A DNA stretch of 61,380 nucleotides, the filler included. It is 4 parts of 4 records of this genome, joined end to end, with 100 filler letters (N's around TTAATTAATTAA, not from the genome) between each part and the next. Parts side by side here need not be neighbours in the genome. Positions count along the whole stretch, not along the records: positions 1 to 22,065 come from SRR20825006_1222; 3 more parts are not named here. The stretch is one strand, 5' to 3'. Below, piece after piece: positions 1 through 18,806 of this stretch. Each line of letters starts with the position of its first letter. Within the stretch, counting starts at the first letter, position 1. A program made the translations under genes and the position numbers. The notes beneath the pieces were generated by a model, which saw only the letters and a program-made list of their open reading frames with translations, made no database searches and was not told the origin of the DNA.

Positions 1-19
1 TCTCGCCAGGGCGAACACG

Positions 20-862
20 ATGGCCACCTGGAAACTTTTCTTAAGGGTGAGATTCGCTATGTCCAATGATATCAATGACCTATGGATCAACTGGTTCTCT
101 AAATATGAGACTCGAACGGACAGTCTGAGACTCGATAAGATTTCCTCAGAATCTGATGCTTTATTCGAAGTACTTTCCAACGCATCGCAAACCACGATAA
201 GTCAGCGGGAAATTTTGCCAAGCAAGCTCTCGTCAACTGGAAACATCATTATCGACGGTAAAGGTAGCGCCGTAGAGTTCGAAAGCCGACTTGAACGAGA
301 CTTCATTACAATCATGGCTTTGAGAAGAGGCGTACGCGTTATCGATGCACAGCCCATAAAGATTGGTTACTTTGATGAAGATTCTCGTCCCAAATCCTAT
401 ACTCCAGATTTTCACATTGTGCGGCGTGTGTACCTCAACAACAAACCCGCGCATCTTGAGAGCATCTTTGCTGAGGTGAAATTCACCTCTGAACTCAATG
501 GCCCAAAATCACTGGAGCTCATAAGAAAGTTCAAGCACGCTCAACTTTGGGCCAAACGGCGCGGCTGGAGATTCGCTGTCTATAGCGAAGACGAAATCAG
601 AACGCCGGAACTCCATCGAGCCGAACAGCTACTGCCATTTCGCCGCAATCCCGAAAATACGAAGCTGGAAACAGCCATTGCATCTCTTCTTCGGACAGGC
701 GGACCTAAACTGATTCGAAATGTTCAACAAGAATTGGGAAACTTTCCAAGTAACCTCGTATTTTCTGAAGTTCTAAGGATGCTGGCAAACCGCCAAATCG
801 CATCTGATCCGATGTCGCTCGTAACAGAAAATAGCCTTGTCAGTATGTGGCAAGATTTCTGA
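20..862 (+). CDS. tnsA: TnsA-like transposase endonuclease subunit
   Basis: Motifs FESRLERDF, AQPIKIGY, YTPDF and AEVK (PD-(D/E)XK core) are typical of TnsA, and the gene is first in a tnsABC-tniQ run. The true start may lie downstream of 20 (ATG at 59 or later). Confidence 0.85.
   Translation: MATWKLFLRVRFAMSNDINDLWINWFSKYETRTDSLRLDKISSESDALFEVLSNASQTTISQREILPSKLSSTGNIIIDGKGSAVEFESRLERDFITIMALRRGVRVIDAQPIKIGYFDEDSRPKSYTPDFHIVRRVYLNNKPAHLESIFAEVKFTSELNGPKSLELIRKFKHAQLWAKRRGWRFAVYSEDEIRTPELHRAEQLLPFRRNPENTKLETAIASLLRTGGPKLIRNVQQELGNFPSNLVFSEVLRMLANRQIASDPMSLVTENSLVSMWQDF
106..134 (+). repeat. Two TGAGACTCG copies 20 bp apart (106, 126); candidate transposase or regulator binding sites
   Basis: Directly visible. 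Same octamer and spacing as the array at 7691-7760; degenerate TGAGATTCG at 48. Confidence 0.5.
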
Positions 863-953: not shown

Positions 954-2723
954 ATGATGCAACAAGGCCATGCCCCAGTTGCCAGCGATAACAAGCGAGA
1001 TAAGGTTTCCGAAGAAGAATGGAAAAGGGCGTGCGAATTTCGCACTAGTGTCGAACGGTGGCTAGATACTAAGCAGAAGACCAGAGCCCAAGCTGAAGCA
1101 CATGCAGAAGAATTGCATGTCTCACCTGCTACATTCTACAGACTGGTCCAACGGTACATCAAAAAGCCAAACACCTCGTGTTTTTTGCGTTCGAGCAAAA
1201 AGATCACGCCTAGAACTGGACGGCTCACTGAGGTCCAAGAGGCCTTGATGACGTCCACGATCAATACGCATTACCTAAACAAACGAAGACCAACGCAAGT
1301 CTCTGCGTACAACGAGTTACGTGTAGATTGCCATCTAAAGAAAATCCCGTTGCCTTCAATGTCGGCCTTTCGGAAACGGCTTCTTTCGGTGGCGCCCAAA
1401 ACCCTATGCAGCAAACGGTTTTCCGTAAAGTACGCGAACGAAAAATATAAAAGGGAACAAGGCCACTTTCCGTACGCAGAGTATCCGCTGCAATGCATTC
1501 AAATTGACCACACCCCCACCGACAGACATCTCGTTGATCCAGAACACAGATGCGTAATCGGAAGAGCCTTTTTAACAACAGCTATTGATTGTTATAGCCG
1601 AGCATGTCTCGGATATTACGTTAGCTTTGCGCACCCCAGCACTCTTTCCGTTGCAATGTGTCTGACACACGCTGTCCTAAGGAAGGATAAATGGTTACTT
1701 GAACGCCGCATTAGCGCTCCTTGGCCAATGCACGGACTGCCCGACATAATTCATACTGATAATGCCAAAGAGTTCAGAAGAAACCTGTTTGTCAGAGATT
1801 GCCAAGAATATGGAATATCTGCTCTGTTCAGGCCCTTAGGACAACCGAATTTTGGGGGTACAGTAGAAAGCTGGATCAGAAACATGAACCGGCAAAATCA
1901 TGGACAGCCAGGTTCGACAAGAAGCCCCCCAAACAAAAACTCCGACTACAACCCGGAAAAAGATGCATGCCTGACTTTAAACGAATTAGATCGAAGGTGG
2001 GCTCTTTTCATTACGGGTGTATACCATAACAAAGTGCACAGCGAGATCGGCATGCCTCCAATGGCAAAGTTCGAACAAGGCTTGCAAACGATGTACGAAA
2101 AATATGGCAAGACAATCAGAGAGCCTGAAGACCCAGATCGCTTTTTGTTGGATTTCCTACCGCAGGTTACGAGAACAGTTCAGAAGTACGGCGTTCGCTT
2201 TAATCACATTGAGTATGATGGTGAAATCCTAGATTACCTCCTCAATATGAGCGAGAAGAGAAGCTACACGGTTCGCTACGATCCACGCGATATCTCCAAA
2301 CTGTTCATCTATGTGCCTAGCGAACAGAAGTATTACCCGCTCGTCTACAGGGATAAATCCCTGCCACCAATGAGCCAATATGAATACAACATCATTACGC
2401 GTGAAGCACAGCGTGCAGGAAGGGCTTTAGAGAACGAGGCTCAGATCGTGGAAAGCCTCCTTGAAATGCGTCGCGACACCGAGAAAGCTCTCAAAGAAAC
2501 GAAGCACCACAAGCGCAAGAGACGGCAAAAGGCACTCCAGCCAGGCAACAACCCTTCGACAGTTCCAGCCATCAATAACGGCGAAACAGCCAAAAAAGTT
2601 GATGGTAATAAGCTCGGTACTGCACGGGGTGCGGATAGAGACAAGGGTGGACGCTCGCAAGGGCGGAAAGCAGTGTATGAGTTCGATCCAGAGATTCTGC
2701 AGACAGGGATTGATCTGGAATGA
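954..2723 (+). CDS. tnsB: DDE transposase, TnsB/TniA (Mu-like integrase core)
   Basis: QIDHT, AIDCYSRACLG, IHTDNAKEF and GGTVESW DDE motifs; N-terminal HTH; C-terminal RYDPRDIS Mu-transposase region. Confidence 0.92.
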   Translation: MMQQGHAPVASDNKRDKVSEEEWKRACEFRTSVERWLDTKQKTRAQAEAHAEELHVSPATFYRLVQRYIKKPNTSCFLRSSKKITPRTGRLTEVQEALMTSTINTHYLNKRRPTQVSAYNELRVDCHLKKIPLPSMSAFRKRLLSVAPKTLCSKRFSVKYANEKYKREQGHFPYAEYPLQCIQIDHTPTDRHLVDPEHRCVIGRAFLTTAIDCYSRACLGYYVSFAHPSTLSVAMCLTHAVLRKDKWLLERRISAPWPMHGLPDIIHTDNAKEFRRNLFVRDCQEYGISALFRPLGQPNFGGTVESWIRNMNRQNHGQPGSTRSPPNKNSDYNPEKDACLTLNELDRRWALFITGVYHNKVHSEIGMPPMAKFEQGLQTMYEKYGKTIREPEDPDRFLLDFLPQVTRTVQKYGVRFNHIEYDGEILDYLLNMSEKRSYTVRYDPRDISKLFIYVPSEQKYYPLVYRDKSLPPMSQYEYNIITREAQRAGRALENEAQIVESLLEMRRDTEKALKETKHHKRKRRQKALQPGNNPSTVPAINNGETAKKVDGNKLGTARGADRDKGGRSQGRKAVYEFDPEILQTGIDLE

Positions 2724-3628
2724 CATCTCACCTGCACCCCAGAACCCTCGAGCTACTCGCGGAAAATGCGGAAAGGAAAACCCTTTGGATGAAGGAACCA
2801 AAGTGGACCTCCTACGAATATGCTGATCGTTTATTGAGAGAGATTTCTCTCACTGTAAAACAACCACCGTGTCATCGGATGCCTTCAATGTTGCTGATTG
2901 GAAAGAGCAACAACGGAAAAACGATGATTCTGGAAAGAGCGCTTAAAGCTCATCCCCCGATCACGGATATCGAAGCTGAATCCAACAATGTTCCCGTCAT
3001 ATTTATAACAATGCCCCCAAGACCCGATTTGCGACGTTTTTATTCAATGGTGTTAAAACGTCTGGGGGCACTCTTCAAAGAGTCAGCCGCAACTTCTGTT
3101 CTTGAGATCCAAGCTCTAACTTTATGCGAAAGTCTCGGTCTTCGTTCAATCATTATTGACGAGTTTCACAATGTCGCCCGCTGCAGTGTCCGGTCTCAGC
3201 ACGAGTTTTTGAACATGCTGCGATTTTTAAGCAATGAATTACGCATCTCTTTTGTTGCTGCTGGCATAGACTCTGCAGCACGGGTCATTGCATCTGACCC
3301 CCAATTGGCCAGCCGATTTCGCCCCTATAGTTTGCCTCTGTGGAAAGACGGCGAGGAGTACCGAAAACTTCTCTTTATGATCGAATCCTTGATTCCGTTA
3401 CCCGAACCTTCGTTCCTGTACAAGAACGAGGAAATTGCAAAGATGATCCTCACTGTAGGTGAGGGTAATTTGGGAGATATGATCGATTTTCTGAAAGAAG
3501 CAACTTACATTGCATTTGATGATGGCTCGCCAAGTCTGACAGTTGCTCACTTCAGAGATACTGGCTTTGTTCCAAAGTCCGTTCAGGCAGCAAGGCTACG
3601 TGATTTGGCCAAGCAGTCTCATGACTAG
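2720..3628 (+). CDS. tniB: TniB/TnsC AAA+ ATPase
   Basis: Walker A GKSNNGKT, Walker B IIIDEFHN, FLNMLRFLSNEL and DPQLASRF; ATGA overlap with tnsB. Confidence 0.92.
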   Translation: MTSHLHPRTLELLAENAERKTLWMKEPKWTSYEYADRLLREISLTVKQPPCHRMPSMLLIGKSNNGKTMILERALKAHPPITDIEAESNNVPVIFITMPPRPDLRRFYSMVLKRLGALFKESAATSVLEIQALTLCESLGLRSIIIDEFHNVARCSVRSQHEFLNMLRFLSNELRISFVAAGIDSAARVIASDPQLASRFRPYSLPLWKDGEEYRKLLFMIESLIPLPEPSFLYKNEEIAKMILTVGEGNLGDMIDFLKEATYIAFDDGSPSLTVAHFRDTGFVPKSVQAARLRDLAKQSHD

Positions 3629-4604
3629 CCGCTATTTACCGGTCCGTCCAAGGCCAAAATGCGGTGAAAGCCTATCGAGCTGGATTGTCAGAACGGCGCA
3701 TTTGAACGGGCTTTATCTACAGACATTTTGTGATCTGGTCTGGCCCCTCTATCCGATATGGAACAGGGATACTGATCGTCTGGGAGACTCAAACATTCTC
3801 CGCCAGATGGCGATACTCACGGGCACTTCGCCAGCAAAAGCACTGGCGACCGCCTTTCCATTTTATGAAAAGCTTTTGCTACCGGAAACTTCCCACTCAG
3901 GGTTGCAGCAGGAGATCACCGTTCTTGGGATTTTTCACAGGATTCATAAGAAGTTTGGCCAAACCTATTGTCCACAATGCGTCAAGGAAGAGGGCTACTA
4001 TCAGCTGTTTTGGCGCCTAAATTGCGTTACGGTTTGTACAAAACATCGCCAACGCCTGCTTGATCGCTGTTGGAATTGCGGAGCACCTGTCTGCCTGCAT
4101 CGCGGCGAAATCCACAAGTGCGACAAATGCGGCACGGACCGGCGTGACGCAAAGAGGAATTTGCAGATTGATCCCTATGCCTTCCGACTACAACAGAGGA
4201 TAGATCAAGCAATAACGACGGGGACACTATTCTGGGATGTTCCGGCAGATACGCCAAAGGCATTTCTTCGACTGATTTCTGAGCTTATGCATTGTTGCAC
4301 AGGTCAGGGACACCGCGCACCAAACCTAAGAGAATCCGTCCAAAAATTGATGGGTGGAAATTATGGGCGACTCGATATCCCGGGGGAAAAGCCCAACATT
4401 GGTGTTCTCGATTGTGAAACACGACACCAATTAATGGCACTCGTCGGCAGACTTATTTTCAACTGGCCCTGGAGCCTTATTGCGTGCGGCACGAATGCCC
4501 AGTGTTGGCGATCATACTTTTTGAGTCCGGTTGACGACCCGTGTCACGAGTTACGAGAAGGCACAGCATTGCTGAACTATGACCTCAAAAATCCAGTTTA
4601 TTAA
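3621..4604 (+). CDS. tniQ: TniQ-family target selector
   Basis: N-terminal LPVRPRPKCGESLSSWIVRTAHLN; Zn motifs CPQC, CTKH, CWNC and CDKC. Start ATG 3621 overlaps the tniB stop. Confidence 0.9.
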   Translation: MTSRYLPVRPRPKCGESLSSWIVRTAHLNGLYLQTFCDLVWPLYPIWNRDTDRLGDSNILRQMAILTGTSPAKALATAFPFYEKLLLPETSHSGLQQEITVLGIFHRIHKKFGQTYCPQCVKEEGYYQLFWRLNCVTVCTKHRQRLLDRCWNCGAPVCLHRGEIHKCDKCGTDRRDAKRNLQIDPYAFRLQQRIDQAITTGTLFWDVPADTPKAFLRLISELMHCCTGQGHRAPNLRESVQKLMGGNYGRLDIPGEKPNIGVLDCETRHQLMALVGRLIFNWPWSLIACGTNAQCWRSYFLSPVDDPCHELREGTALLNYDLKNPVY

Positions 4605-6531
4605 TTGCGTGCAAGAGATCTTCTCCCAACTGCTCTCGATATTTGGGGTTTCTCCGAGAAAGGTACGAATAGCATCCAGCTACTTCAACAAGCTCTTCTG
4701 TTCTCGGCCAACCGCCATTTTTTGCACGAACACCGGTGTAAAGAATATCCAGGAGAACATTCTGACCAAGCCATATTTCTTCATCCGGTTTAACCAACAG
4801 GTTACCAAGTTGCAACGGATTATAATGAGGTGGTGCTCGCCTCTCGACACAGAACAAATAGTAATCTGAATCATGAATGTGCAACCTTGCTATTAGAGCA
4901 CAAAGTTGGCGGCTGCTATGGGGCTGAACAAGGTTCCGGGTCCCACCCCACTCAGGTATTTCGATAAGTGAGACCTTGGGATCCACCCGACGCATTGGAT
5001 ACCAATTGTCGGCTAATGTCCAAACGCGCACAGTAGTAGACTCGACCAATGAGAAAAGGGCAGATGCGACTGGGCTAATTGGAAATTCAACTTTGCAGCC
5101 CAACCAATTATCTAGGATTGCTCTGCTTCCATCTGAGCTGGATGGCCGAAGTTGAAATTTTCCATAGCGATAACGATAATGGGGAGCTTGCCCTAAAACT
5201 GGCCGTATTCTTTTGAAAGGTACGTCAACTTTCTGATTAAATAATATCCGCGCCTCTCGAAGTAGACCTTCTGGTGTGTTCACATTTTTAATCAGCCTTT
5301 CTTTGGGATGATCCTCTGGCAGTCTATTATAGCTGGCAGGAGGGAGAGGAGGACCATATACCTCTGTTCTAAGCGCGAGTTCAGGTAGCGGCGTCCATGT
5401 AAAAGTTTTCTGTAGAATGGACTCACCATGGAACCCCGACACGGGGACATCAATTCGGCCGCTTTTATTCGGGCTGACCTTTTCATCTATCTTTTGCTTG
5501 CTTGAGAAATGAAGGCGCGAAACCCGATGCTTGGGTTCAATTGAAACAATCTGAACAGCTTGAACGGCCTGACGATTAATCAACGCCCCGTCGACAGAAA
5601 CATTCATAATACCGTCAGGTTTTGCCTCTGAAGTCGACACACGTCGTCCCAGAAACTCGATCATAAATGGTTCGGTGAATGGAAAGAATGCGGGAAATTC
5701 GGAAAACGCCCGTCCTTCGCTAAACAAAATCCCGACAAGCATCTGAGCCGTCTTCCTGAGGTAGGCATCGGCCCGACCACCTGAGACAAGAAAGTTCGCC
5801 AAATTTATAGCCGCACGAAGATGTGCCGGACTATCACACCTATTCAGTTTGCACTCATACCTTTGACCAATTTGTTTTGGTAACCGTTGAAAAAATCGCG
5901 GCAGTACGGGCTTGGTTGCTCCTTCCAAAAGATACTGGACCAAGATCGATGATTTGTGAAAATAGATCCAAAAAAGGTCGCCAGGACTAAGAAGAACTTG
6001 TTCGTTAAAGTTTGATGCGTAGAGGTTTTGTTCTCCAGGCTGCATCATGATTGCCGACACACGAAACCGAGGGACAATCCATCCTTGATCAACACTAAGA
6101 CTCTTCGGAAAACGGGTGAGCCGCACATCCGACTTTGTTTCACGATGGAGCCAAACATGTTCTATAGATTCTGGGTCAACCCACATCCTGCAGGTCAACA
6201 AGGACTGTTCTTTGGGTAAAATCTGTCTGTGGTAAAAAAGGAGCTGGCTTTCACGAATCTGCGAAAAATCCTTGATCGGAAACCGTCGCAGAACTGCTGT
6301 ATGCGCGTTTGATCTGGCCCATCCGTAAAGATCATGTTCGACTTTTAAAACTGATTCATTGATTTCCAAAATTCGAGCAATCAACCAGATTTGCTGGGAA
6401 TCATAGCCTTCCTCGACCGACAACATACTGTCGTGTCCGACCCCCACAAAATCGAGCAGATACTGTGGGTGTTCAAATTCTCTCGCGACATACGCAGGAA
6501 TGCTTTTCAGTTCGGCACTAGTCTCTTTCAT
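4585..6531 (-). CDS. Large hypothetical protein, possibly a divergent TnsE-like target selector
   Basis: ~648 aa from ATG 6531, which overlaps the recombinase stop (the ORF track starts it at 6735). The segments DLFWIYFHKSSILVQYLLEG, FFPFTEPFMIEFLG and C-terminal ALIARLHIHDSDYYLFCVERR...GVRAKNGGWP resemble, from memory, TnsE-family patterns; adjacent to tns genes. Confidence 0.4.
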   Translation of the reverse strand: MKETSAELKSIPAYVAREFEHPQYLLDFVGVGHDSMLSVEEGYDSQQIWLIARILEINESVLKVEHDLYGWARSNAHTAVLRRFPIKDFSQIRESQLLFYHRQILPKEQSLLTCRMWVDPESIEHVWLHRETKSDVRLTRFPKSLSVDQGWIVPRFRVSAIMMQPGEQNLYASNFNEQVLLSPGDLFWIYFHKSSILVQYLLEGATKPVLPRFFQRLPKQIGQRYECKLNRCDSPAHLRAAINLANFLVSGGRADAYLRKTAQMLVGILFSEGRAFSEFPAFFPFTEPFMIEFLGRRVSTSEAKPDGIMNVSVDGALINRQAVQAVQIVSIEPKHRVSRLHFSSKQKIDEKVSPNKSGRIDVPVSGFHGESILQKTFTWTPLPELALRTEVYGPPLPPASYNRLPEDHPKERLIKNVNTPEGLLREARILFNQKVDVPFKRIRPVLGQAPHYRYRYGKFQLRPSSSDGSRAILDNWLGCKVEFPISPVASALFSLVESTTVRVWTLADNWYPMRRVDPKVSLIEIPEWGGTRNLVQPHSSRQLCALIARLHIHDSDYYLFCVERRAPPHYNPLQLGNLLVKPDEEIWLGQNVLLDILYTGVRAKNGGWPRTEELVEVAGCYSYLSRRNPKYREQLGEDLLHAINKLDF

Positions 6532-7483
6532 CTTGATCGAAACCTGCTCCAAGACTTGCGATGACTTTTCGGTAAGCATTACCATCGACGCCAGCAATGT
6601 ATGGCAAAAGGCCCCTTTCGGTGCGATGGTGAGTGACATTGAGAATGTCACCATTCGTGACACCTGCATGGTGAGCTGCCGTAATGAACCCGCGTCGTAA
6701 TGAATGGGCACCATACTCTTCCTGCGGCGCTCCAAGTTTCCCCATCAAATGTTTTATGAGGCGGTAAAGATATCGGTCGGAAACGTGCTGCATGGTGGGA
6801 GCATGTGCCGCAATTCGAGGAAAGCAGAATGGACTGCTGTCCGAGAGCTCAACATGTAATGCACTTAGCACTGACCATGCACACAATGGTGAAGAAACTC
6901 TCGGAACAAAACAGCCATCAATTGCTTTACCTGATTTGCTCCAACCTGTGGTGATACAGAACCCCTCTTCCTCAAATCGGATGTTACTCCATTCCAGGCA
7001 GACCAACTCCGATCGACGCATCGCGCTTGCAAAGCCAGTCAGCAACATCGCGCGATCCCGTCGACCCTTTAGGGTTTCTGGAATAAGTTTCAACGCTTGG
7101 AGAAGCGTGTCAGGTTGGATTTTGCGTTTAGGTCGATTGATATTCTTTTTTGCACGTCGACACCCTTTCAGGAGGCGAGCCAAAAGCTCGCGATCGTCCC
7201 TTACCGCGCACCCGGCAAGTCTTAGATGATGCCGGATCGCCGAGAGGTCTTGTGTCAGAGCCGACATGCCTACTGTCCGGGAACGCTCTGTGAGAAACAG
7301 ACCGATTGTCTTGGCCGAAGGAGCGCTCTGTACCAAGCCGTGCAACCTGCACCAATTCTGATATCGTTTCCAAGCAGCTTGGTATCTTCGACGCGTAGAT
7401 GTTGCCAATGCAGTGTCGACAAGATCGCCGGCCGATGCCGCCAGACTAAGAAGGTAAGACTGCTCCGTACTAGGCCGATTCAT
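6518..7483 (-). CDS. Cre-like tyrosine recombinase (site-specific integrase/resolvase)
   Basis: SAM-like N-terminus (STRRRYQAAWKRYQNWC). Catalytic set present: RDRAMLLTGFASAMRRSEL (R), SKS (K), HSLRRG (HxxR), THH (H) and LLPYI (Y). Confidence 0.9.
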   Translation of the reverse strand: MNRPSTEQSYLLSLAASAGDLVDTALATSTRRRYQAAWKRYQNWCRLHGLVQSAPSAKTIGLFLTERSRTVGMSALTQDLSAIRHHLRLAGCAVRDDRELLARLLKGCRRAKKNINRPKRKIQPDTLLQALKLIPETLKGRRDRAMLLTGFASAMRRSELVCLEWSNIRFEEEGFCITTGWSKSGKAIDGCFVPRVSSPLCAWSVLSALHVELSDSSPFCFPRIAAHAPTMQHVSDRYLYRLIKHLMGKLGAPQEEYGAHSLRRGFITAAHHAGVTNGDILNVTHHRTERGLLPYIAGVDGNAYRKVIASLGAGFDQDERD

Positions 7484-7680: not shown

Positions 7681-7760
7681 TTTTTTTCAATGAGACTCCC
7701 GTTTTCATCTTTGAGACTCGTTTTTTAATTTGAGACTCCCTTTTTCGGGGGTGAGACTCA
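7681..7760. repeat. Array of four T-tract/TGAGACTC units; candidate TnsB-binding sites or transposon end
   Basis: TGAGACTC at 7691, 7712, 7731 and 7752 (spacing 21, 19, 21), separated by T-rich tracts; the last unit ends in CA at 7759-7760. Confidence 0.75.
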
Positions 7761-7913
7761 TTAGTCGAGAAATATCTGCCGCATTTTGGGTTAAGTCGTA
7801 TGTTTTGGGTGAGTAGCAAAAGGGTATAAGATACTCGTAATGTAACGTCGTCGCATGCGCGTATTGCGTTCAGGATGACGCTCAATTTGTGCGTTGGCAG
7901 GAGGGGGAACTGC

Positions 7914-8357
7914 ATGAGCCACACCCAAGAAGATCCACTATCAGAGAGCGTCCAGATTGCTCATCTGACCATGCTGCAAGGTACCATCGCCAGGATGGGA
8001 TCGAACTCATTTTCACTCAAAGCACTCTCTGCAACATTTGGAAGTGCTGCCGTCGCTGTGACGGCTTCAGTTGATCATCCTACCCTTTACTATGCTGTCT
8101 CGGCTGTCATTCCGATCCTGATTTTCTGGATGATGGATGCACAATATATCCGATACGAGCGCGCCTTCAGAAAGTTGTTTGATCATGTCCGGAAAGGTCA
8201 ATCCATAGAGCCTTACAGTATCGATCCCGCTCCTTTTATGAAGGATATTGGGCCGGTTCTTAACCTTGCCTTATCGTGGTCAGTATTTCCGTTCTACGGG
8301 GCAATATTGCTAAGCTTCGGATTGGTTGTGTCGTTGATTCTTGATGGGGGCTCCTGA
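7914..8357 (+). CDS. Small multi-pass membrane protein, putative effector of the adjacent TIR
   Basis: AGGAGG RBS; HLTMLQGTIARMGSNSFSLK and FWMMDAQYIRYERAFRKLF motifs; about three hydrophobic helices; stop abuts the TIR start. Confidence 0.7.
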   Translation: MSHTQEDPLSESVQIAHLTMLQGTIARMGSNSFSLKALSATFGSAAVAVTASVDHPTLYYAVSAVIPILIFWMMDAQYIRYERAFRKLFDHVRKGQSIEPYSIDPAPFMKDIGPVLNLALSWSVFPFYGAILLSFGLVVSLILDGGS

Positions 8358-9002
8358 ATGTCTCTTGCAGCAAGCTTGCGTATCGACCCACCGCAGAAGC
8401 GACGTGTGTTCTTCTCGTTTCATTATCAACAGGACATTTGGCGCGTTAACCAGATCAGGAATTCTTGGCGCTATCAGCGCGAAGCACAGCGCGAAGCCGC
8501 AGGCTTTTTTGATGGTAGTATCTGGGAAAGATCACAACGCACAAGCGATGAGTCTCTCAAGACCCTCATTCGCGAGGGCATCAGCAACACCTCCGTCACA
8601 TGTGTATTAGCCGGACAACATACCTATGCGCGACGCTGGGTAAGATATGAAATTGCCCGCAGCATTATCAAAGGGAATGGCCTTCTCGTCGTTCAAATCC
8701 ACAACTGTAGAAACCGGCTTGGCTATACCTCCCAGCCAGGCCCCAATCCACTCGACCATATGGGAACCTATCTCACGAACGATAACCGAATTCTTCTCGC
8801 CGAAAGAAACAACCAAAGTAACTGGGTGAGATACGATGACTATACACAAGCTGTTTCATTACCCGGAGGATGGCAAGTACCGACTTCTAACGTGGTCATC
8901 CCGTTAAGCAGCTACGCAAATCAGTATTGTTATGTTGCCCATAACGGTCCGGCCAATTTCGCAACATGGGTCAGTAACGCCGCAGCTTTTGCAGGCAAAT
9001 AG
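8358..9002 (+). CDS. ThsB-like TIR-domain protein (DUF1863 type)
   Basis: RRVFFSFHYQQD, GFFDGSIWE and NTSVTCVLAG..TYARRWVRYEI, with the catalytic Glu retained. Confidence 0.9.
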   Translation: MSLAASLRIDPPQKRRVFFSFHYQQDIWRVNQIRNSWRYQREAQREAAGFFDGSIWERSQRTSDESLKTLIREGISNTSVTCVLAGQHTYARRWVRYEIARSIIKGNGLLVVQIHNCRNRLGYTSQPGPNPLDHMGTYLTNDNRILLAERNNQSNWVRYDDYTQAVSLPGGWQVPTSNVVIPLSSYANQYCYVAHNGPANFATWVSNAAAFAGK

Positions 9003-9027
9003 ATCGTCAAAGACAGGAAGCTATCAT

Positions 9028-9381
9028 ATGCACAGAGATGACAGCTATTTGCGTGATTTGCTGCTGGAGATCGAGGACAGTCCGGACATTGTTTTCATCT
9101 CACGTCGACCGATAAGCGCCTCGACGGAACTCAAGAAACAAAACCATCATCTGGACTTGCTGTGCGATTGCGGCTTTCTTGCAAGGGTTAACGACAACGC
9201 CTATCGCCTGACGTCAGCCGGACATGACTTCACACAAGCACTTCGCAATGAAACGATCTGGTCCAAGACCAGAAGCAAAGTGGCCGAGGCCGGCGGATAT
9301 GTGACCTTGGAGATTCTCTCGACTATTGCCATTGGCTATCTGAAACAGGAGATTTCAAAAGCGACCGGTCTTACACTCTAA
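9028..9381 (+). CDS. DUF2513-family (winged-helix-like) protein
   Basis: MHRDDSYLRDLLLEIE and RLTSAGHDFTQALRNETIWSKT match the DUF2513 pattern. Confidence 0.75.
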   Translation: MHRDDSYLRDLLLEIEDSPDIVFISRRPISASTELKKQNHHLDLLCDCGFLARVNDNAYRLTSAGHDFTQALRNETIWSKTRSKVAEAGGYVTLEILSTIAIGYLKQEISKATGLTL

Positions 9382-9397
9382 CATTCAAGAGGTAGAG

Positions 9398-9658
9398 ATG
9401 AATAATGAGGAGCGCCGCCGCCGCGCCATTGCGCACTTCGCACAAGAGGCCAAAAAGGTGAACGCCAAACTTTCTGAAGAGCAGAAGATGGCGATCGTCG
9501 GATTGACCCCAGAGCTGATGAAAAAGCGGATTGCCGATCCTCTACTCAAGGAGTTGGTTCAGTTGAAATTGGTCGAACAGAAACTTGGAGGGCCCGCGCT
9601 AACCATTCTCGGAAAATTTGTCGCGCGATTGAATGGCGCTCAGGCCTCGTCCTTGTAA
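9398..9658 (+). CDS. Small basic hypothetical protein (possible winged helix)
   Basis: GAGG RBS; 86 aa; ELVQLKLVE...ALTILGK resembles a wHTH wing. Confidence 0.5.
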   Translation: MNNEERRRRAIAHFAQEAKKVNAKLSEEQKMAIVGLTPELMKKRIADPLLKELVQLKLVEQKLGGPALTILGKFVARLNGAQASSL

Positions 9659-9712
9659 ATGAGCGTTGCCCGACGATATTTCCAGCAATGTGATCATACC
9701 TTCCGCATGTTT

Positions 9713-10327
9713 CTACCGCCTTAGAACAGCATATCTCTGAATCGGATTGTTTTTGTTTTCGGGCACGTGCACATATGCGCACAGATATCTTTCTCCCGAA
9801 CTCGTCTCACATTTATCGAGTTTGCTGTTCTTGACCAAATTCAGGAACTCAACCTCTTTCGCAAACCACGCATATTCCGCCCTCTTGGCTTCCAAGCCGA
9901 AGAGCGGTCTAAAGTAAAAATATCCTCCCGTGATCAGAGCCAAGATCAACACAATAAACAGCGCCTGAACGCCAAGGATCGGCCACAGGAGTTTCCGCGC
10001 TTTTTGCGTCATGTTGGCCGTGACAACTTCCGCACATTTCTGCGCCTTCTCTGCTTCCTTATACATTGACGATATGTCGGATTTCACCGTCTCACCGATA
10101 TTGCGCGCAATCGGATCCATAGCCTGTTGCAAAGCAGTCGTTGCCAGACTGGTCTTGGTTGTGACCACAAAGCGATCAACTGCATTGCGCAGCTCAGTCG
10201 CAGCCTGCAGAGAGATTTCCCTGTCCTCGTCAGCAAGCTTCATCATATTGTAGAAAGCTTCCATCGCCTCTTCGAACTCTCTGGAGGTCTTCGAAAATTC
10301 GTTCATTTCCTCTGTACTCGCACTCAA
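9713..10327 (-). CDS. Plasmid mobilisation accessory-like membrane protein
   Basis: Coiled coil, then a single TM helix, then a C-terminal C..G..LC..V...Y.VL pattern seen in plasmid Mob accessory proteins (by recollection). Confidence 0.45.
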   Translation of the reverse strand: MSASTEEMNEFSKTSREFEEAMEAFYNMMKLADEDREISLQAATELRNAVDRFVVTTKTSLATTALQQAMDPIARNIGETVKSDISSMYKEAEKAQKCAEVVTANMTQKARKLLWPILGVQALFIVLILALITGGYFYFRPLFGLEAKRAEYAWFAKEVEFLNLVKNSKLDKCETSSGERYLCAYVHVPENKNNPIQRYAVLRR

Positions 10328-10337
10328 TCTTTAAACC

Positions 10338-11060
10338 TTAGAACCCTATTGAATGGCCTCTGTCGCGTTCTATCCCTTGTGAGCGGCTTCGTGTTCGGCT
10401 CATCACATTCTCACGCTGTAACACTTGTTCATGTTGCAGTTTTTCGAGCTTTTCACGTGTCATCGTGAATTGGCGAATATCGGGCAGCGTCACAAATTTA
10501 AGCGTGCCGGAAGTCGTGCCCCCAACGATGATAAAACCGCCGCTCGTGCCTGTATCACCCTCGACACCATCAACTGCTTTGTAAGCTTGTTGAACCAGTC
10601 CGAGATAATGGCAACATTCTTCACCCGTGATACCACGATCGCGAACAAGTGTGCCCTCAAGAAGGACGTCGACAATGCGCTCGAGCCGCACGGATTTAAG
10701 TTCAGATTGGAAGTCGAGATAGGGTGAACACCGCGTTGCCAGATGCTCTCCGTTGAGTTCACTTTCAATATAAAGGTGTGTTCCTCGAGAAACTTCAAGG
10801 TAGCGGGGATTGTCCTGACTGAGATAGCGCTGAAGAAACGCGAGCTTCTGAGCCTCCTTGGTACCCTTATTGGCACGGCGCTTGAACTCAAGTAGATAAT
10901 AGACGTCCGGCATACCGATCAGCACATCGGCCAGTGACTTGTCCATTGGGGTTTGTTGAAGAAGATTAATATTAGTGGGCATACTGAACGCTTTCTGTCC
11001 GGCACGAAAGCCAAGCGCGTAGATAAAGCCGCCGATGACGACATTTTCGTAGATATCCAT
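10338..11060 (-). CDS. PD-(D/E)XK nuclease-like protein with Arg-rich C-terminal tail
   Basis: E (YENVV) ... ADVL ... LLEFKR nuclease-like motif; tail RENVMSRTRSRSQGIERDRGHSIGF; GAGG RBS before ATG 11060. Confidence 0.5.
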   Translation of the reverse strand: MDIYENVVIGGFIYALGFRAGQKAFSMPTNINLLQQTPMDKSLADVLIGMPDVYYLLEFKRRANKGTKEAQKLAFLQRYLSQDNPRYLEVSRGTHLYIESELNGEHLATRCSPYLDFQSELKSVRLERIVDVLLEGTLVRDRGITGEECCHYLGLVQQAYKAVDGVEGDTGTSGGFIIVGGTTSGTLKFVTLPDIRQFTMTREKLEKLQHEQVLQRENVMSRTRSRSQGIERDRGHSIGF

Positions 11061-11131
11061 TGGATCCTCAGGAAAGGGGGCGCAGCGCAAGACTGGAGAA
11101 ATGGAATCACCCCAAGCAGCCGCCTGAAGGC

Positions 11132-11740
11132 TTAACTGGCGAGAAGCTTTTTAAGGTTATCCCAGTTCCATCGATAGAGTTGACCTGCATCGGGCACACG
11201 CGTGTAATTACCGGCTTTATAACCGATCATTTGTATGATTTTGATGTTGCGGGCTCTAGCCATTCGAATTTCCTTGAGAACTCCCTGCGCTTTCCATGTG
11301 TGAGGGCCCACCAGAACGAGCACAAGGTCAGAACGAGCGATCGCCGCATCTGCTTTGCGTTCCCAGTCTTTCTCCGGTGCAGCTTCTTTCAGTGATAGAT
11401 CGACAATTTCAAAGGGTGAATCAGGCAGCCTAGACTGACCAATAATGAAGGTCTTCAGCATCCTGTCATTGTCAAAGTCGAAGCTCACAAAGACTTTCTT
11501 CTTCGCCATCTCATTCTCCTGTGACGTTTTTCCAAACAGATATCCAAATGCTCCACCAACAAATAAACCGACCCCTGGAGCAAGTGCATGACCAATCACA
11601 CTCCCGACGCCAGTTGCAATCGTCAGTCCCGCAGATTTCTGATCAAAGGTACCCTGATGAGATCGGCAAAATCGATCATCGCTCACTGCGATCTTGTGGC
11701 AGCGACGGCCCGATCTGGTCTTGGCTTCACATTGTGCCAT
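11132..11740 (-). CDS. TIR-domain protein with N-terminal CCCH Zn-knuckle and glycine-zipper TM segment; internal start at 11509
   Basis: CEAKTRSGRRCHKIAVSDDRFCRSH, then GVGSVIGHALAPGVGLFVGGAFGYLFG, then the TIR (KKVFVSFDFDND...GVLKEI). An AGGAGA RBS precedes the in-frame ATG at 11509. Confidence 0.8.
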   Translation of the reverse strand: MAQCEAKTRSGRRCHKIAVSDDRFCRSHQGTFDQKSAGLTIATGVGSVIGHALAPGVGLFVGGAFGYLFGKTSQENEMAKKKVFVSFDFDNDRMLKTFIIGQSRLPDSPFEIVDLSLKEAAPEKDWERKADAAIARSDLVLVLVGPHTWKAQGVLKEIRMARARNIKIIQMIGYKAGNYTRVPDAGQLYRWNWDNLKKLLAS

Positions 11741-11778
11741 AATAACCTGAACACCATTTGATCCCTGCAAAGGCCATG

Positions 11779-12363
11779 CTATTCACCAGCCCATTTCGAA
11801 AAATGGGTGTACCCATCATCGGCGATCCATCGGTAAGTCGGAAAGTTCATCTGCGACAAAGGCATAATCCTGCCATGTAAACCCGCAGGTACAGGCGTTG
11901 ATCGGTTCCAGCGATCAAGTTCAGCAAAAACAGACCAGCCATTCTTTCCCGCGACATAGGGGGTCATCGAGCGGCCGTCCTCTGAAAACCCAAGGGCCGT
12001 GTATTCAAACGGGTTTACACCAAGTGCCTTGGTTTGCCGATCTCGTCCCCGAATTTCATTGATATGAACACCAAACAGGTAGTTGCCTTTTGCTATACTC
12101 TTGAACATCTCATAGTGCACCCATTGACGCGCATAGGTCTGCGAACCAATCAACACGCAGGTACAGGAAGTATTTGTCAGACCGGCATTGATCAGGCGTT
12201 TGATGGCCAAATTGCTGTCTTTCCTGGCCTCTTCCCAAACTGAAGCATCAAAGAAGCCTGCTTCCCCGCGGTTCGGTTTGGTCATCCAATGATTGCGCAC
12301 GACATTGGCGCGGAAATCCGCAACATCCTGATAGTGGAACGAGAAGAAAACGCGTTTGGCCAT
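11779..12363 (-). CDS. ThsB-like TIR-domain protein
   Basis: MAKRVFFSFHYQDV, GFFDASVWE and NTSCTCVLIGSQTYARQWVHYEM: a canonical Thoeris TIR. Confidence 0.92.
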   Translation of the reverse strand: MAKRVFFSFHYQDVADFRANVVRNHWMTKPNRGEAGFFDASVWEEARKDSNLAIKRLINAGLTNTSCTCVLIGSQTYARQWVHYEMFKSIAKGNYLFGVHINEIRGRDRQTKALGVNPFEYTALGFSEDGRSMTPYVAGKNGWSVFAELDRWNRSTPVPAGLHGRIMPLSQMNFPTYRWIADDGYTHFSKWAGE

Positions 12364-13026
12364 TCAGACCTCCCCACTGGACTGATCAGAAATGATGGGA
12401 GCAGGAATGGTTACGGCCCGACGCTTGAAGTCGCGTGCGTCTAACGGCGAAATGCCAAGCCGCTCGTGGAAAAGATGAGAAAAATCACACCCTTCAATCA
12501 TCGGTCCGTCTTCGGCATTCAGTGAAAGCGCCAATTTACGTGCCGCCCCCCCCGCAGCACCAACCGGGACCGTTTGTATGTCGGGATGATAGCTTGTTAT
12601 CAGCTCAAACTCATCGAGAATGCCTTGTTTACCACCGATGAACACTGCTGCTTCAAATGCGGTTTCGCCAAACATGCGTTCCCGCATATGCCGCAGGCTT
12701 GCAGAAAGATCTGGCTTTCCGTCCGCATCCGAAATCGTATCTGTCACAACGATATTGTTGAAACGAGCATTCTCATCAGGAAACTCGTCTTCAAAATATC
12801 CGCTCTGATAGAGCTTAACCGCCTCGGCGTAATCGACACCCAAGTCTTCACATACCGTCCAAACCATTGGGGTGATGGCCGGATGCCCACCCCAGACAAG
12901 CTGGCACCGACCCAATACGGTGGTCATAAACTCGCGCACAGCGAATTGGATCAGATAGGGATCGGCGTCAGTCGCAAATTCACTTGTTGGCTCAGGAACA
13001 CTGGCCGAGAGAAACACAGCCTTCAT
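12364..13026 (-). CDS. Stand-alone SLOG-domain protein (cluster-3 type; ThcA-like)
   Basis: VFLSASVP, LVWGGHPAITP, LYQSGYF, SLRHMRERM, AVFIGGKQGILDEF and GAAGGAA are typical SLOG motifs; translationally coupled to the TIR genes on both sides. Confidence 0.85.
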   Translation of the reverse strand: MKAVFLSASVPEPTSEFATDADPYLIQFAVREFMTTVLGRCQLVWGGHPAITPMVWTVCEDLGVDYAEAVKLYQSGYFEDEFPDENARFNNIVVTDTISDADGKPDLSASLRHMRERMFGETAFEAAVFIGGKQGILDEFELITSYHPDIQTVPVGAAGGAARKLALSLNAEDGPMIEGCDFSHLFHERLGISPLDARDFKRRAVTIPAPIISDQSSGEV

Positions 13027-14183
13027 TACCGATCTCCTTCGTGATAATCGGCCAATTGCCATGCGGTTTCATGCAACTTGATATATCGAACCGGCGCAAT
13101 CATCTTCTGAAGCCAATCGATATGTCCTTTCGAGTGTTCATGTAATCCTACCTCGTCATAGACTACGACGGCTTCGTCAGGTGATTGTTTCATCACTTCG
13201 TGCAAGTGCAACGAGGTCGGGACTCTTATGGTTGGATGCAGAACACACTTTCGACCGTCGGCAAGTTCAAGCAGGATCGAATGACCAGAACCTTTGCCAA
13301 GGACCTGTCCACCGATCATTTCGACGCTTTCACGGATCTTGCTGTAGAAATTCAAACCACGAACCGCATGGCTTTTGCTGCGAAGTGCCTCAATATCCTG
13401 ACAAAGTTCGTCAAGACAACCTGCATTAAGCTGCTGACCATCAGGTTCAAAATGGTCACTGGTCAGCGTACGCACGCTGTGAGCCGCATGTTGGCGAGAC
13501 GGTGTATGGTCTGGCCAACCAATTCGGTAAATTGGGATTTGCTTGGCCAGGGCCCGGCCAAACTCGGCCGACGTCCACCGGCTGTCGAAATAGTCGGGCG
13601 TATCGAGCACAACCAGAACATCACTGTCGCACAGATTATGCCAGAGCATCGCCTGAAAATCCTCACCAGGCGCGATTTCATGGGTATCGAGAAAGACGTC
13701 GAAGACACGAGAGGATAGCGCATCGAACAATTGCAAGGCGGCTGCACGTGATTCCGTGCGTCGATAGCTCAGAAACACGCGACGCTGGCGCGACATAAGT
13801 CCAACCGCCTCCAGCAGTGCGGTCACCACGCGTCCCATACCCTGTTCGGGTTCATCAATACCAACGGCATTCAAAGGCTGCAAGACGCCAGGAAGTTCAA
13901 GAGTGGCGCCCCGGAGAAGGCTCACCACAGGTATGCATGGGACACCGTGATCTAGGATCCTTTTGACGTCTTGCTCAGCTGCCCCAACGGCACCAAAATA
14001 GACCATCGTCGTCGCGATCCGCGGATCATGGGTGTATTCGGCGGATGGGTAGTTGATTTCCACCTCTCCTCCGAGAGCCAGACCAAACGGTCTCAAGTGC
14101 TCAGCCAAACGTCCCGTTAATTCGGTAAGCTGAACTGGCGTAGGTGTACCTCTACATAAAATCCGGTAAAGCACGTTCGTCAT
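13026..14183 (-). CDS. Multi-domain TIR protein (central TIR_2)
   Basis: RRVFLSYRRTES, FDVFLDTHEIAPGEDFQ and SDVLVVLDTPDYFDSRWTSAEF; uncharacterised N- and C-terminal domains. Confidence 0.88.
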   Translation of the reverse strand: MTNVLYRILCRGTPTPVQLTELTGRLAEHLRPFGLALGGEVEINYPSAEYTHDPRIATTMVYFGAVGAAEQDVKRILDHGVPCIPVVSLLRGATLELPGVLQPLNAVGIDEPEQGMGRVVTALLEAVGLMSRQRRVFLSYRRTESRAAALQLFDALSSRVFDVFLDTHEIAPGEDFQAMLWHNLCDSDVLVVLDTPDYFDSRWTSAEFGRALAKQIPIYRIGWPDHTPSRQHAAHSVRTLTSDHFEPDGQQLNAGCLDELCQDIEALRSKSHAVRGLNFYSKIRESVEMIGGQVLGKGSGHSILLELADGRKCVLHPTIRVPTSLHLHEVMKQSPDEAVVVYDEVGLHEHSKGHIDWLQKMIAPVRYIKLHETAWQLADYHEGDR

Positions 14184-14199
14184 CACACTATCCAAAATA

Positions 14200-14700
14200 C
14201 TATCGAAGATAGAACCCTTTAGTGGTTCCCGGTTCAAAACGGCCCAGACCTCCTCCAGGCACTTCTTCAATCCGTTGATACAGTCCTAAATACTCGTTCC
14301 CGTGTGTTTGGAAACTATCAGTTGTGGGAATAATCAGTATATTTTTTCGGGATTTCGCCCCATTGGCATACCCAATTTCCCAAGGGCACCATTTTGATTC
14401 CGACGAATTTCGAGTTGCCAGATAGAGAAAATGCGATCGAGTTTTAATTTGTTCTTGAATGCGAGTTGCCGTTTCTACGGTAGGTCGTTCTGGCATGTCT
14501 TCGTCCAACCAGTCGATGTAAACATCCCAACCTAGCCGCTCCGCATAGTTGCGAAAACCGATCGCTAAACTACGATCATAATGGCTATGACACAAAAACG
14601 CCGTTTGAGTCCCTGCTACAACGGCTCCATGAAAGCTCCGACGAACAGTAGTTGATGACGCTTGAGCATTCTGACGTAGAGTATCTTGTGAAATTGCCAT
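14200..14700 (-). CDS. TIR-domain protein (TIR_2)
   Basis: AFLCHSHYD, DVYIDWLD and FLYLATRNSSESKWCPWEIGYA. Confidence 0.88.
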   Translation of the reverse strand: MAISQDTLRQNAQASSTTVRRSFHGAVVAGTQTAFLCHSHYDRSLAIGFRNYAERLGWDVYIDWLDEDMPERPTVETATRIQEQIKTRSHFLYLATRNSSESKWCPWEIGYANGAKSRKNILIIPTTDSFQTHGNEYLGLYQRIEEVPGGGLGRFEPGTTKGFYLR

Positions 14701-15030
14701 TTCCCAGCCTTCTCGTTTGATTATGGACTGGACCCTATGCGGGCAGCCACAACTTACAACCGAGTATAATTCAAACTTCGAACTAATAGCTGCAGGGGAT
14801 TACCCCCTCTTAAGGGTGATCGGATTAAGCAAAGGAAGGGCCACAGGTTTATTATGTGAGTTTTTTTTAAGAGCTATCTCTGAGAGCATTGCTTGGAAGT
14901 GTCCGCATGCAAATTTTACATCCAACTTGCTACTCTATGTCGAAGAACAATTCTGAGTAATCAAAACGAAGGCAGCAAATAGGACAGAAATTAAAGAATT
15001 AGCGTAACTGCTCTATCAGTGAGTGCACTA

Positions 15031-18000: not shown

Positions 18001-18165
18001 ACTGCCCGCCAAACTCCACTCTAAGGCGTTGAAGAGCGATGATTTCCCTATTCCATTACTGCCATGAACGATAAGAACTCCCGGTTCAGGCGGCAGGTCT
18101 ATATCAAGATGTGAAAAGCTCCTAAACTGTTGGAGGCGGATGTTTTGAAGGTATAATGAGGTCAC
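15031..18165 (-). CDS. lmuB: SMC/Rad50-like ABC ATPase (Lamassu LmuB / ABC-3C sensor)
   Basis: Walker A GSNGIGKSS, long coiled coils, CPLC zinc hook, signature HSEGQ, Walker B LILDDPLQHND and STHD. Confidence 0.85.
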   Translation of the reverse strand: MTSLYLQNIRLQQFRSFSHLDIDLPPEPGVLIVHGSNGIGKSSLFNALEWSLAGSIDQFERVAGADKPERYLCRRGNDSTEATSVALAFSDGQKSKIITRELAAHGNNKSRLSGDVSDIVEFLRAPEWQSKISDIGSYLLLTHFLGQTTMSRLTNQDPKRGFEILHEAAQSASIQAIADNFYGQRNDSVVRAYKAEIDRIEAEKGPLESLIEQEQRYWNDISSLGGLDESFVERELREIAFTLNQCSENLLFYDNAQLTKGNLSREVIEQAIEKLEVWCVQVRHQTVLGENLIARQGHVVAEIEELVASSNQVEKALASLNGRLNACQREVHESELQVERLTESMQKAQKKSERLGAVYKGSNEYSQFAAGVHITQDRVFSARKSRDKAQANYSRAIRRMEIIRRLSTDIEEYSHEITKAHTRISLLSEAIACMEHVKMCSENYTILLQSNPATEQRLLDTKNGLENITGAVDQQTEVVENMRGTVDAISQAIATLAIELSSEACECPLCATQFKDASGLRERIDNAVERLAPTLVREEELLASMIEDQDHWSSEVARLEAASSELALAQEQLKTQRGRLDELLRQLDWTEQASIEKLSAVQSELAEHMNRATKKLNRKRHWLTVIKTGFSGDSSIRHLRDELQQSEDDLTKSVRDLEQASKECEQASNRLERARLNLENDEKLESQNGVYALWIEADFELALAQDDLRTADKTLSEARSKLSTQLEEKAAVEARLKTIQDNQKEKEVLLQEIESRWRGLRDYGLEANSSSLHKKSKEITEINQLFDEIKLRLERLRENENVLKWRETHEAILQRIRKAIDLSPNFERDETLMRAKKYLQKLDEDVKATNYVKEIAKSASQKISKSLSEFNKEYILPLSKLMKNINQAILCDRDVGIDLEVKGRKIKQRAVKGKLISESVDPKLIHSEGQLSALAVSMLCAASLTFQWSKWKALILDDPLQHNDSIHSAAFADLMGNLAKEEGYQIILSTHDIGQAEFLRRKFRSRKVPCTTLNLLGVGHEGVEWSIQPTAGLSPETSVADTSA

Positions 18166-18806
18166 TTCCCTTTCCTCCAGGCATCAACAAGTTTAGGGAT
18201 CATAAGGAGAGGCCGGTCATTGAACTTTCGGGCATGCTCAACCCATTGTTTCGCTGTTTTTGCAGATAAGCCCTCCCCGATTAGGACCCGTTCAACTAAG
18301 CCTTGATTGTGATCTAGAGGCGCGTTATTGACCATGTCGTTCTTCCGCCAAGGGCGGGCCAAAAACGTGCGCGAAATCAGTTCTGCGCAAGAAAACCCCT
18401 CCTTATCACCAGCCGTCCAGACCAATTTTCGGCAAACAGCCTCATCTCGCTCAATCAGATCAATCAAGACACGCCAATCCGAGGCTTCGTCAATGACTGT
18501 GCCACGCAGTATAAGGTGGGTGTTAATGACTTGGTTCGCTTCCATATAGGAGCGCGCGATAACGACTTGATTGTGAAACTGTTTGATTGCTTGCTTTACT
18601 TGGTCAGTCTCACGCAAATCTATCTCACCGGCAAGCACAGGATAATCTCCGAGCTGAAGGCCGACTACCTTGCCAGGAAGCACAACATCCGCAGTGCCTT
18701 CTCGTCCTTTAAACTGTTTGCTGGCATAATCTGGCATCGGCTTAGTTTTCCAGCCGAGAGCTCGAGATGTGCTGATCAGTTCGTCACAGAACTTTTCAAG
18801 ACTCAT
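18162..18806 (-). CDS. ABC-three-component middle component (LmuC-like)
   Basis: 214 aa with 4-nt overlaps to both neighbours; IERDEAVCRKLVW motif; position between the effector and the SMC. Confidence 0.7.
   Translation of the reverse strand: MSLEKFCDELISTSRALGWKTKPMPDYASKQFKGREGTADVVLPGKVVGLQLGDYPVLAGEIDLRETDQVKQAIKQFHNQVVIARSYMEANQVINTHLILRGTVIDEASDWRVLIDLIERDEAVCRKLVWTAGDKEGFSCAELISRTFLARPWRKNDMVNNAPLDHNQGLVERVLIGEGLSAKTAKQWVEHARKFNDRPLLMIPKLVDAWRKGK

Follow-up and report, generated by a model that had tools for sequence, protein, structure and literature searches.

The window analysed here is a stretch of 61,380 nucleotides (nt) composed of contigs joined by N/TTAATTAATTAA linkers (22066-22165, 38459-38558 and 47424-47523), and its first piece (1-22065, contig SRR20825006_1222), to which the finding is confined, contains the tnsA-side end, and this end alone, of a Tn7-type transposon inserted into comM. 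The element encodes all four Tn7 hallmark proteins (TnsA, TnsB, TnsC/TniB and TniQ), which were matched by Pfam both here and in the related locus L002, and these genes meet a minus-strand pair encoding an intact tyrosine recombinase and a protein of 648 amino acids (aa). L002 is the Thalassospira xianhensis locus that encodes WP_114120831.1 and comprises a complete element of 41.5 kb. Further copies were found on the metagenome contigs L031 and L032 and on a contig of a Maricaulaceae metagenome-assembled genome (L001), which carries a partial copy of the L031/L032 lineage. The comM junction, the core genes, with the extent of their open reading frames (ORFs), and the adjoining repeat array in the window are as follows:

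1..28, minus strand: 3' part of comM, the interrupted host gene (codons GGHRVRPGE, just upstream of the Walker B region)
29..140, plus strand: tnsA-proximal (right) transposon end with the terminus TGG, overlapping the start of tnsA
59..862, plus strand: tnsA (Pfam Tn7_TnsA-like_N, 1e-9; ORF open from 20)
954..2723, plus strand: tnsB, DDE transposase (Pfam rve and Mu-transpos_C)
2720..3628, plus strand: tnsC/tniB, AAA+ regulator (Pfam TniB, 9.7e-58)
3621..4604, plus strand: short tniQ, 327 aa (Pfam TniQ, 3.1e-21; ORF open from 3543)
4585..6531, minus strand: 648-aa protein with a putative TnsE_C-like C-terminal domain (approximately residues 480-630; ORF open to 6735)
6518..7483, minus strand: Xer-like tyrosine recombinase, 321 aa (Pfam Phage_integrase, 2e-9; ORF open to 7573)
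7691..7759, plus strand: array of four direct repeats with the core TGAGACTC (spacing 21/19/21 bp), approximately 208 bp upstream of the recombinase start

Alignment of the N-termini with L002 makes ATG 59 the most likely start of tnsA, and ATG 3621 is the most likely start of tniQ. The stop of the 648-aa gene (4585) and that of tniQ (4604) are convergent and overlap by 20 nt, and the recombinase stop (6518) overlaps the ATG of the 648-aa gene at 6531 by 14 nt, a start supported by the homologue in Thalassospira, in which ATG and recombinase stop overlap by 4 nt. An initial annotation made from the letters alone had described this gene map and both overlaps, and the former is borne out by Pfam and ORF coordinates, the latter by the stop and start positions. 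The location of the element in comM, the missing tnsF and the repeats upstream of the recombinase had not been noticed in it. A promoter/terminator scan of 4300-8000 yielded chance level only.

Insertion of this Tn7-type transposon occurs at a fixed site in comM. In four of four loci (window, L031, L032 and L002), comM is broken at its GGGH codons, approximately 30 bp before the Walker B sequence VLFLDE, and the comM flank in the window can be aligned to the comM junction of Thalassospira as well as to the flanks in L031 and L032, the ORF in the L031 flank matching Pfam Mg_chelatase at 1.5e-41. In L002, the comM 3' part (Mg_chelatase profile positions 93-206) adjoins tnsA and the 5' part (profile positions 1-95) is located 41.5 kb away on the same contig. 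The L002 junctions read ...CGGTG/TGTAAAA... and ...TTTCACA/CGGTG..., which corresponds to TGT/ACA termini and a 5-bp duplication (CGGTG), and TnsB-type repeats are present inside both ends of this element. Its tnsA-side end starts with TGTGAAA and carries TGAGACTG and TGAGATTC, and the right end in the window contains three TnsB-type repeats, TGAGATTC at 48-55 and TGAGACTC at 106-113 and 126-133. Furthermore, the L031 and L032 elements are 100% identical over 5,235 bp, from the site of an insertion sequence (IS) to the transposon end, whereas the adjoining 330 bp of comM share 85.2% identity. Identical elements beside diverged comM flanks indicate that this lineage moved recently between hosts, into the same nucleotide position.

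The 648-aa protein belongs to a very small family that has, wherever its surroundings are visible, the same company. An exhaustive HMMER search of 1.84 billion representative proteins returned 6 matches to the 648-aa family at an expect value (E) <= 0.001, among which we read one as a spurious PheRS-like fragment and two as fragments; a word-indexed search with the 648-aa protein found 2 close relatives and added a 92% identical cluster, and the same search with the alignment also found 2. The six-gene layout recurs at the same comM position in T. xianhensis and on two metagenome contigs. It is present in 4/4 loci in which both sides of the 648-aa gene are visible (window, L031, L032 and L002), and the recombinase gene lies directly upstream of the 648-aa gene in 5/5 loci (L001 included). 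In L002, recombinase and 648-aa gene are followed by convergent genes for TniQ, TniB, TnsB and TnsA, and in every locus the pair is located within the element, with the right end to one side and the cargo to the other. Identities between the window and L002 are 38% for TnsA, 40% for TnsB, 49% for TnsC, 46% for TniQ (counted from residue 27 on), 41% for the recombinase and 25% for the 648-aa protein. Since the divergence of the pair is similar to that of the tns genes, the pair appears to have been inherited with them as core rather than as chance cargo, and its membership of the transposon core is, in our view, highly probable. An IS of 846 bp (L032 11270-12115; end of L001) with a DUF4096 (IS4/IS5-type) transposase fragment splits the 648-aa gene in L032 and L001, and these elements are otherwise 99.99-100% identical to the intact L031.

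The initial annotation had named a different scenario, in which the protein has no similarity to TnsE and the pair occurs independently of tns genes. In this case, the pair would be unrelated cargo or a neighbouring plasmid resolvase operon beside a chance transposon insertion. Recombinases with 24-34% identity to the one described here do occur without tns neighbours in other alphaproteobacteria: distant relatives were matched in 22 of 381 sampled alphaproteobacterial genomes at E <= 1e-15, and none of 19 such loci, inspected at +-1.5 kb, contains a homologue of the 648-aa protein, TniQ, TnsC or ComM. These distant recombinases were also considered as candidates for elements combining a recombinase with such partner genes and were rejected, the neighbours being unrelated miscellaneous genes. 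The pair itself, however, sat with tns genes wherever neighbours were visible, lies inside the element in every locus, has co-diverged with the tns genes to 25-41% identity, and includes a protein family so small (6 matches in 1.84 billion) that every visible context is the present transposon. A chance neighbourhood is therefore very improbable indeed.

Among known transposons, the closest counterparts are Tn6022-like elements (the AbaR backbone), for which we draw on two articles (Faure et al. 2023, PMC10293859, and a 2024 NAR article of the Peters laboratory, PMC11014353). Tn6022 inserts into comM by means of a short TniQ and TnsF, both of which are required; TnsF, the gene for which immediately follows tniQ, derives from a tyrosine recombinase and is inactivated, and the other strand carries a very divergent tnsE close to the far end (PMC10293859). 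A similar layout is found in genome G320, in the order comM 5' part, tnsE (opposite strand), cargo, a 397-aa gene after tniQ, and tniQ-tnsC-tnsB-tnsA. The window TnsC is 35% identical to the TnsC of this element. The 397-aa protein at the tnsF position of G320 (L025 10694-11887) matches Pfam DruA (Druantia) at 2.5e-67. Full-length Pfam DruA matches were also followed as a possible route to Tsy elements and rejected; the 4 loci, in four genomes, have no recombinase, tns, TniQ or comM neighbours.

The present family shares with Tn6022-like elements tnsA-tnsB-tnsC and a short tniQ on one strand, an opposite-strand gene for a putative TnsE-type protein, defence-rich cargo, and a comM insertion site immediately before the Walker B codons, the tnsA end facing the comM 3' part. 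In contrast, Tn6022-like elements carry tnsF (orf3/tniE, approximately 480-500 aa) after tniQ, a position at which the present family has no gene: tniQ directly meets the convergent gene, the two overlapping by 20 nt in the window and lying 2 nt apart in L002. The family of the G320 tnsF-position protein, Pfam DruA, had no match among the scanned ORFs of window 1-22065 and of L002. While tnsE of Tn6022-like elements is located near the far end, the TnsE-like gene of the present family is placed tail to tail with tniQ; its product is far more divergent than Tn6022 TnsE, lacks a Pfam TnsE_C match and is coupled to an intact recombinase, and the pair is preceded by an array of 4-5 repeat copies. 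The family is thus a relative of Tn6022 that inserts into comM and has a recombinase-TnsE-like operon instead of tnsF. The layout had been called atypical in the initial annotation. An opposite-strand tnsE is already described for Tn6022-like comM elements (PMC10293859), so that this part of the claim is not new, whereas the coupling to a recombinase was not found in the literature searched: our full-text search found no paper with the recombinase-TnsE-like layout, the supplements of PMC10293859, which possibly list such loci, not being covered.

Judged from its residues, the recombinase is catalytically complete, as had been suggested from the letters alone, and it is predicted to be translationally coupled to the 648-aa gene. 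R156, K183, H260, R263, H286 and Y295 (the RKHRHY set) are invariant in 3/3 aligned recombinases at 39% identity. The L002 recombinase matches Pfam PF00589 at 1e-17, NCBIfam XerC/XerD matches are weak, and the only solved relatives among PDB sequences are XerA (4a8e; 8.8e-6 with a profile) and XerD (1a0p, 5dcf), with no Cre chain at E 0.01. The enzyme is therefore better described as Xer-like, and its previous designation as Cre-like finds no support.

Like TnsF and the recombinases of Tsy elements, the present protein is of tyrosine-recombinase type and encoded in an element that inserts in the same comM region, and its catalytic residues are intact as in Tsy. It differs from TnsF, which by description has a zinc-finger N-terminus and tandem core-binding (CB) domains, in being an ordinary-sized recombinase (321 aa) without these. 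Tsy elements target the same comM region via active recombinases, and capture of a recombinase by a Tn7-like element is a postulated evolutionary intermediate (PMC10293859). We propose that TnsABC would perform cut-and-paste transposition and that the intact recombinase, a not-yet-domesticated counterpart of TnsF with its catalytic residues kept, may be the comM-binding partner of the short TniQ. A short TniQ, as in Tn6022, cannot read comM alone, and the only known comM readers, TnsF and the TnsF-like protein of Tsy, are recombinase-derived, which makes the recombinase the likeliest partner. The TnsE-like protein would provide a second target pathway, replication- or plasmid-directed, as TnsE does. 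We rate the chance that the recombinase selects comM together with TniQ as somewhat below even, and this mechanistic step, the weakest, sets the standing of the whole explanation, which is the best we can offer. A more specific version is that an active recombinase co-expressed with a TnsE-like protein and acting as TniQ partner at comM represents a captured, undomesticated intermediate on the way from Tsy to TnsF, which might also recombine at the array and thus combine DDE and tyrosine chemistries; this version is conceivable and, in our estimate, rather doubtful.

The resemblance to Tsy also allows the recombinase and its upstream repeats to be seen as a Tsy-like integration/excision system, with the element, or part of it, additionally moving as a circle through comM. 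Tsy inserts in the same comM region and needs catalytically active recombinases, and its recombinase gene adjoins a 135-bp end that is needed in full (PMC10293859); in the present element, the recombinase reads in the comM direction and is preceded by approximately 80-100 bp of repeats. However, Tsy consists of a tyrosine recombinase, a helix-turn-helix (HTH) protein and a TnsF-like protein, with or without a GIY-YIG protein, and has no Tn7 genes, whereas the present element has Tn7 genes and Tn7-type junctions (TGT ends and a 5-bp duplication). A Pfam scan of the window and L002 found none of the HTH, TnsF-like and GIY-YIG genes of Tsy in the core, and the array is internal rather than at the comM junction. 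Such dual mobility, which the initial annotation had raised beside a new target selector, is quite unlikely.

The partner of the recombinase was more difficult to place. The 648-aa protein has no match in Pfam, NCBIfam, PADLOC or PDB sequences, including searches with its halves at E 10, and an ESM Atlas feature search returned nothing. AlphaFold2 modelled it with a mean predicted local distance difference test (pLDDT) score of 34 from the single sequence and 40 with a 12-sequence alignment, in which only residues ~450-530 exceeded 60, and Foldseek found no match of the model to PDB at E <= 0.001. Profile comparisons were made with TnsE proteins collected by Pfam PF18623 from sampled genomes, 6 of 401 of which matched at E <= 1e-5; attempts to widen this set added few divergent sequences. 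Using hhalign, the 648-aa family aligned to five diverse TnsE with P 0.001, more weakly to a larger, less diverse set of 19 TnsE (P 0.0068), and to the single TnsE of the comM-inserted Tn6022-like G320 element with P 4.1e-4 over 118 columns. The three alignments all run co-linearly through the C-terminal part and share the motifs VARxxxxxYLFCVERR / VAKVTTPGQVFYLLEIERR and NGGWPR / SNGWPR. When the proteins were split into domains, the C-terminus aligned to the TnsE C-terminus with P 5.6e-5 (probability 66%, 125 columns), and the three other combinations, which served as cross-controls, gave P 0.1, 0.38 and 0.66. The N-terminus aligned to the TnsE N-terminus with P 0.1 over 47 columns, the structure model being poor in this region. 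In addition, when 309 six-frame ORFs were searched with a hidden Markov model (HMM) of the 648-aa family, the best match outside the family was the G320 TnsE (E 3.4e-4; next 0.19). Two TnsE-related ORFs of 631-639 aa (L027 and L028) provided no bridge to the 648-aa protein.

The C-terminal ~150 residues are thus probably a remote homologue of TnsE_C, as suggested by these profile comparisons. Common to the present protein and Tn7 TnsE (5d16; PF18623) are the co-linear C-terminal ~150 residues with an invariant Trp in (N)GWP and a hydrophobic-ExxR strand, as well as the location of the gene in a Tn7-like element. Compared with the TnsE collected here (521-595 aa), the present protein is approximately 110-170 residues longer, scores below the Pfam threshold and is predicted to be co-transcribed with the recombinase; members of the family range from 650 to 690 aa. 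The N-terminal region of TnsE is described with two PriB-like OB domains (PMC10293859). The N-terminal region of the 648-aa protein is family-specific and unlike the TnsE N-terminus or known folds, and the gene abuts tniQ, two observations that would fit a role of the 648-aa protein itself as comM selector, with the TnsE_C-like domain contacting the machinery, the 450-residue N-terminal region reading DNA and the recombinase as an accessory. We consider this assignment improbable: neither a DNA-binding motif nor fold evidence was obtained, and the gene is interrupted by the IS in L032 and L001, although this merely shows that a copy can persist without an intact gene.

The TGAGACTC 8-mer of the repeat array occurs in 6 copies in the 61-kb window, all of them in the array or the right end (two of the three end repeats), against 1.14 expected, and 6 copies were reached in 1 of 100 shuffles. 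The array is kept in L001, L031 and L032, and L002 contains, 212 bp upstream of the recombinase, five copies of GAGTCAAC with a spacing of 21/22 bp, a count reached in 0 of 100 shuffles. Its interpretation as the other end of the transposon was rejected, as the repeats have the same orientation as the tnsA-side repeats and lack a TG terminus at the right distance. The array is probably an operator or binding platform that would tie the operon to the transposase, and in the window lineage its core equals that of the TnsB-type end repeats; it could serve TnsB as an operator or be bound by the recombinase or the TnsE-like protein. A second, shorter repeat is located between the array and the recombinase start:

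7603-7614 and 7620-7631, strand unassigned: two direct copies of CATGAAAATTCT

The CATGAAAATTCT pair is also present in L031, and L002 has two copies of ACCGGTCA at the equivalent place. In every locus, the array marks the boundary between the conserved core and the variable cargo, which in the window extends as follows:

7875..22065 (contig end), strand unassigned: variable cargo with PDC-M50A/B, DUF2513, ThsB-TIR/SLOG/TIR genes and ABC-3C (PADLOC, Pfam)

A two-gene PDC-M50A/B (Thoeris-like TIR) cassette (7906-9027) lies approximately 150 bp from the array in the window, on the cargo side, and is missing from L001 (7195-7201) and L031, the elements of which are ~89% identical. The cassette separates the ribosome-binding site of the DUF2513 gene precisely from its start codon, so that this gene begins at 9029 instead of 8932.

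These features raise the alternative that the recombinase and the array form a site-specific recombination module for cargo exchange or capture, or for resolution or fusion of replicons, with other proteins reading comM. Precedents are the integron integrase beside attI and a XerC-like/dif-like system in some Acinetobacter baumannii Tn6022 elements, the recombinase of which generates diversity (PMC11014353), and the fully conserved catalytic residues, the position of the array exactly where core meets variable cargo in every locus, and the presence or absence of the cassette just beyond it between ~89% identical elements are all consistent with such a module. The A. baumannii system likewise involves a Xer-type recombinase inside a comM-targeting Tn7-like element; however, it is located in captured host DNA between two elements and uses host XerD at a dif-like site (PMC11014353), whereas the present recombinase is part of the conserved core and coupled to a TnsE-like gene, and no dif-like site was identified. 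Moreover, each element has a single array: in the complete 41.5-kb Thalassospira element no second array was found, the 8-mer of its array occurring elsewhere as just one isolated intragenic copy. Neither an inverted-repeat core site nor an attC-like structure was seen at the cassette borders, the precise placement between ribosome-binding site and start codon speaks against the module, and comM recognition without tnsF is left unexplained. Overall, we consider a recombination module possible but unlikely.

Several observations also weigh against the proposal that the recombinase acts as comM selector beside a TnsE-like protein. Full catalytic conservation, as read from the aligned sequences, argues for continued DNA recombination, which would be needless for a mere DNA-binding selector, and hhalign detected no similarity between the recombinase and the G320 tnsF-position protein (P 0.37). 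The array core of L002, GTTGACTC, has only GACTC in common with the end-repeat cores TGAGACTG and TGAGATTC, which makes binding of the array by TnsB uncertain. The statistics behind the link to TnsE, which is drawn from sequence comparison, are weak: Pfam TnsE_C does not match the 648-aa protein even at E 10, the Thalassospira genome is without any PF18623 match, and the structural similarity to TnsE_C reported by VIA-align was obtained with a model of mean pLDDT 40 and a score in the possibly-chance range of the tool. The N-terminal ~450 residues match no known fold or TnsE N-terminus by Foldseek and hhalign, and the 648-aa protein may thus have a role beyond that of TnsE. The initial suggestion of a TnsE-like protein accordingly holds for the C-terminal domain (hhalign, HMM and VIA-align) and does not extend to the N-terminal region or to a Pfam TnsE_C match. 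Finally, three sequence-distinct lineages have been seen, two of which are ~90% identical.

The cargo differs among the window, L001/L031 and L002. Window positions 11132-21169 form a dense defence island with two ThsB-TIR genes, SLOG (LD_cluster3), two TIR_2 genes and a three-gene ABC-3C system consisting of an SMC-like ATPase, MComp1 and CTD2. Two adjacent ORFs (204 and 250 aa) without a family match, on the minus strand of the window at 9713-11090 and in L031 at 6585-7923, share 70-75% DNA identity; they are placed just beyond the DUF2513 gene and kept between the window and the L001/L031 lineage. L031 carries multiubiquitin/ThiF/JAB, RES and HerA-type genes. The Thalassospira cargo (G001:C24 98485-132000) encodes an OLD-type ATPase/TOPRIM protein with a UvrD helicase (Gabija-like), an SbcCD-like pair, a Fic protein, an AAA-ATPase with a subtilase, and a ShlB/TPS two-partner secretion system with a 2025-aa exoprotein. 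Beyond the first linker, the first ORF of the second contig (22191-23108) encodes an adenine deaminase truncated by the contig start, so that only its C-terminal part is present. The G+C contents of the joined pieces are, in order, 47%, ~60%, ~52% and ~30%, and these strong differences may indicate that the pieces derive from more than one organism.

Among transposons that recruit foreign DNA-binding machines to select their targets, Tn7-like elements have been studied best, with TnsD, TnsE, CRISPR effectors and TnsF as the recruited selectors. How a recombinase derivative such as TnsF was captured is an open evolutionary question, which is touched by the rare comM-targeting Tn7-like family described here, in which an intact recombinase, coupled to a very divergent TnsE relative, is encoded facing the transposase genes. 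If the recombinase merely serves as a cargo-shuffling accessory, the family would be a modest extension of what is known of Tn6022. It nevertheless represents a concrete, clonable system of approximately 7.7 kb with which to ask whether TniQ/TnsC can receive a target from an active recombinase, and it also lets the role of the TnsE_C domain be probed on a different N-terminal body. Furthermore, the family adds a carrier of defence islands, apparently recently mobile, to those of marine alphaproteobacteria.

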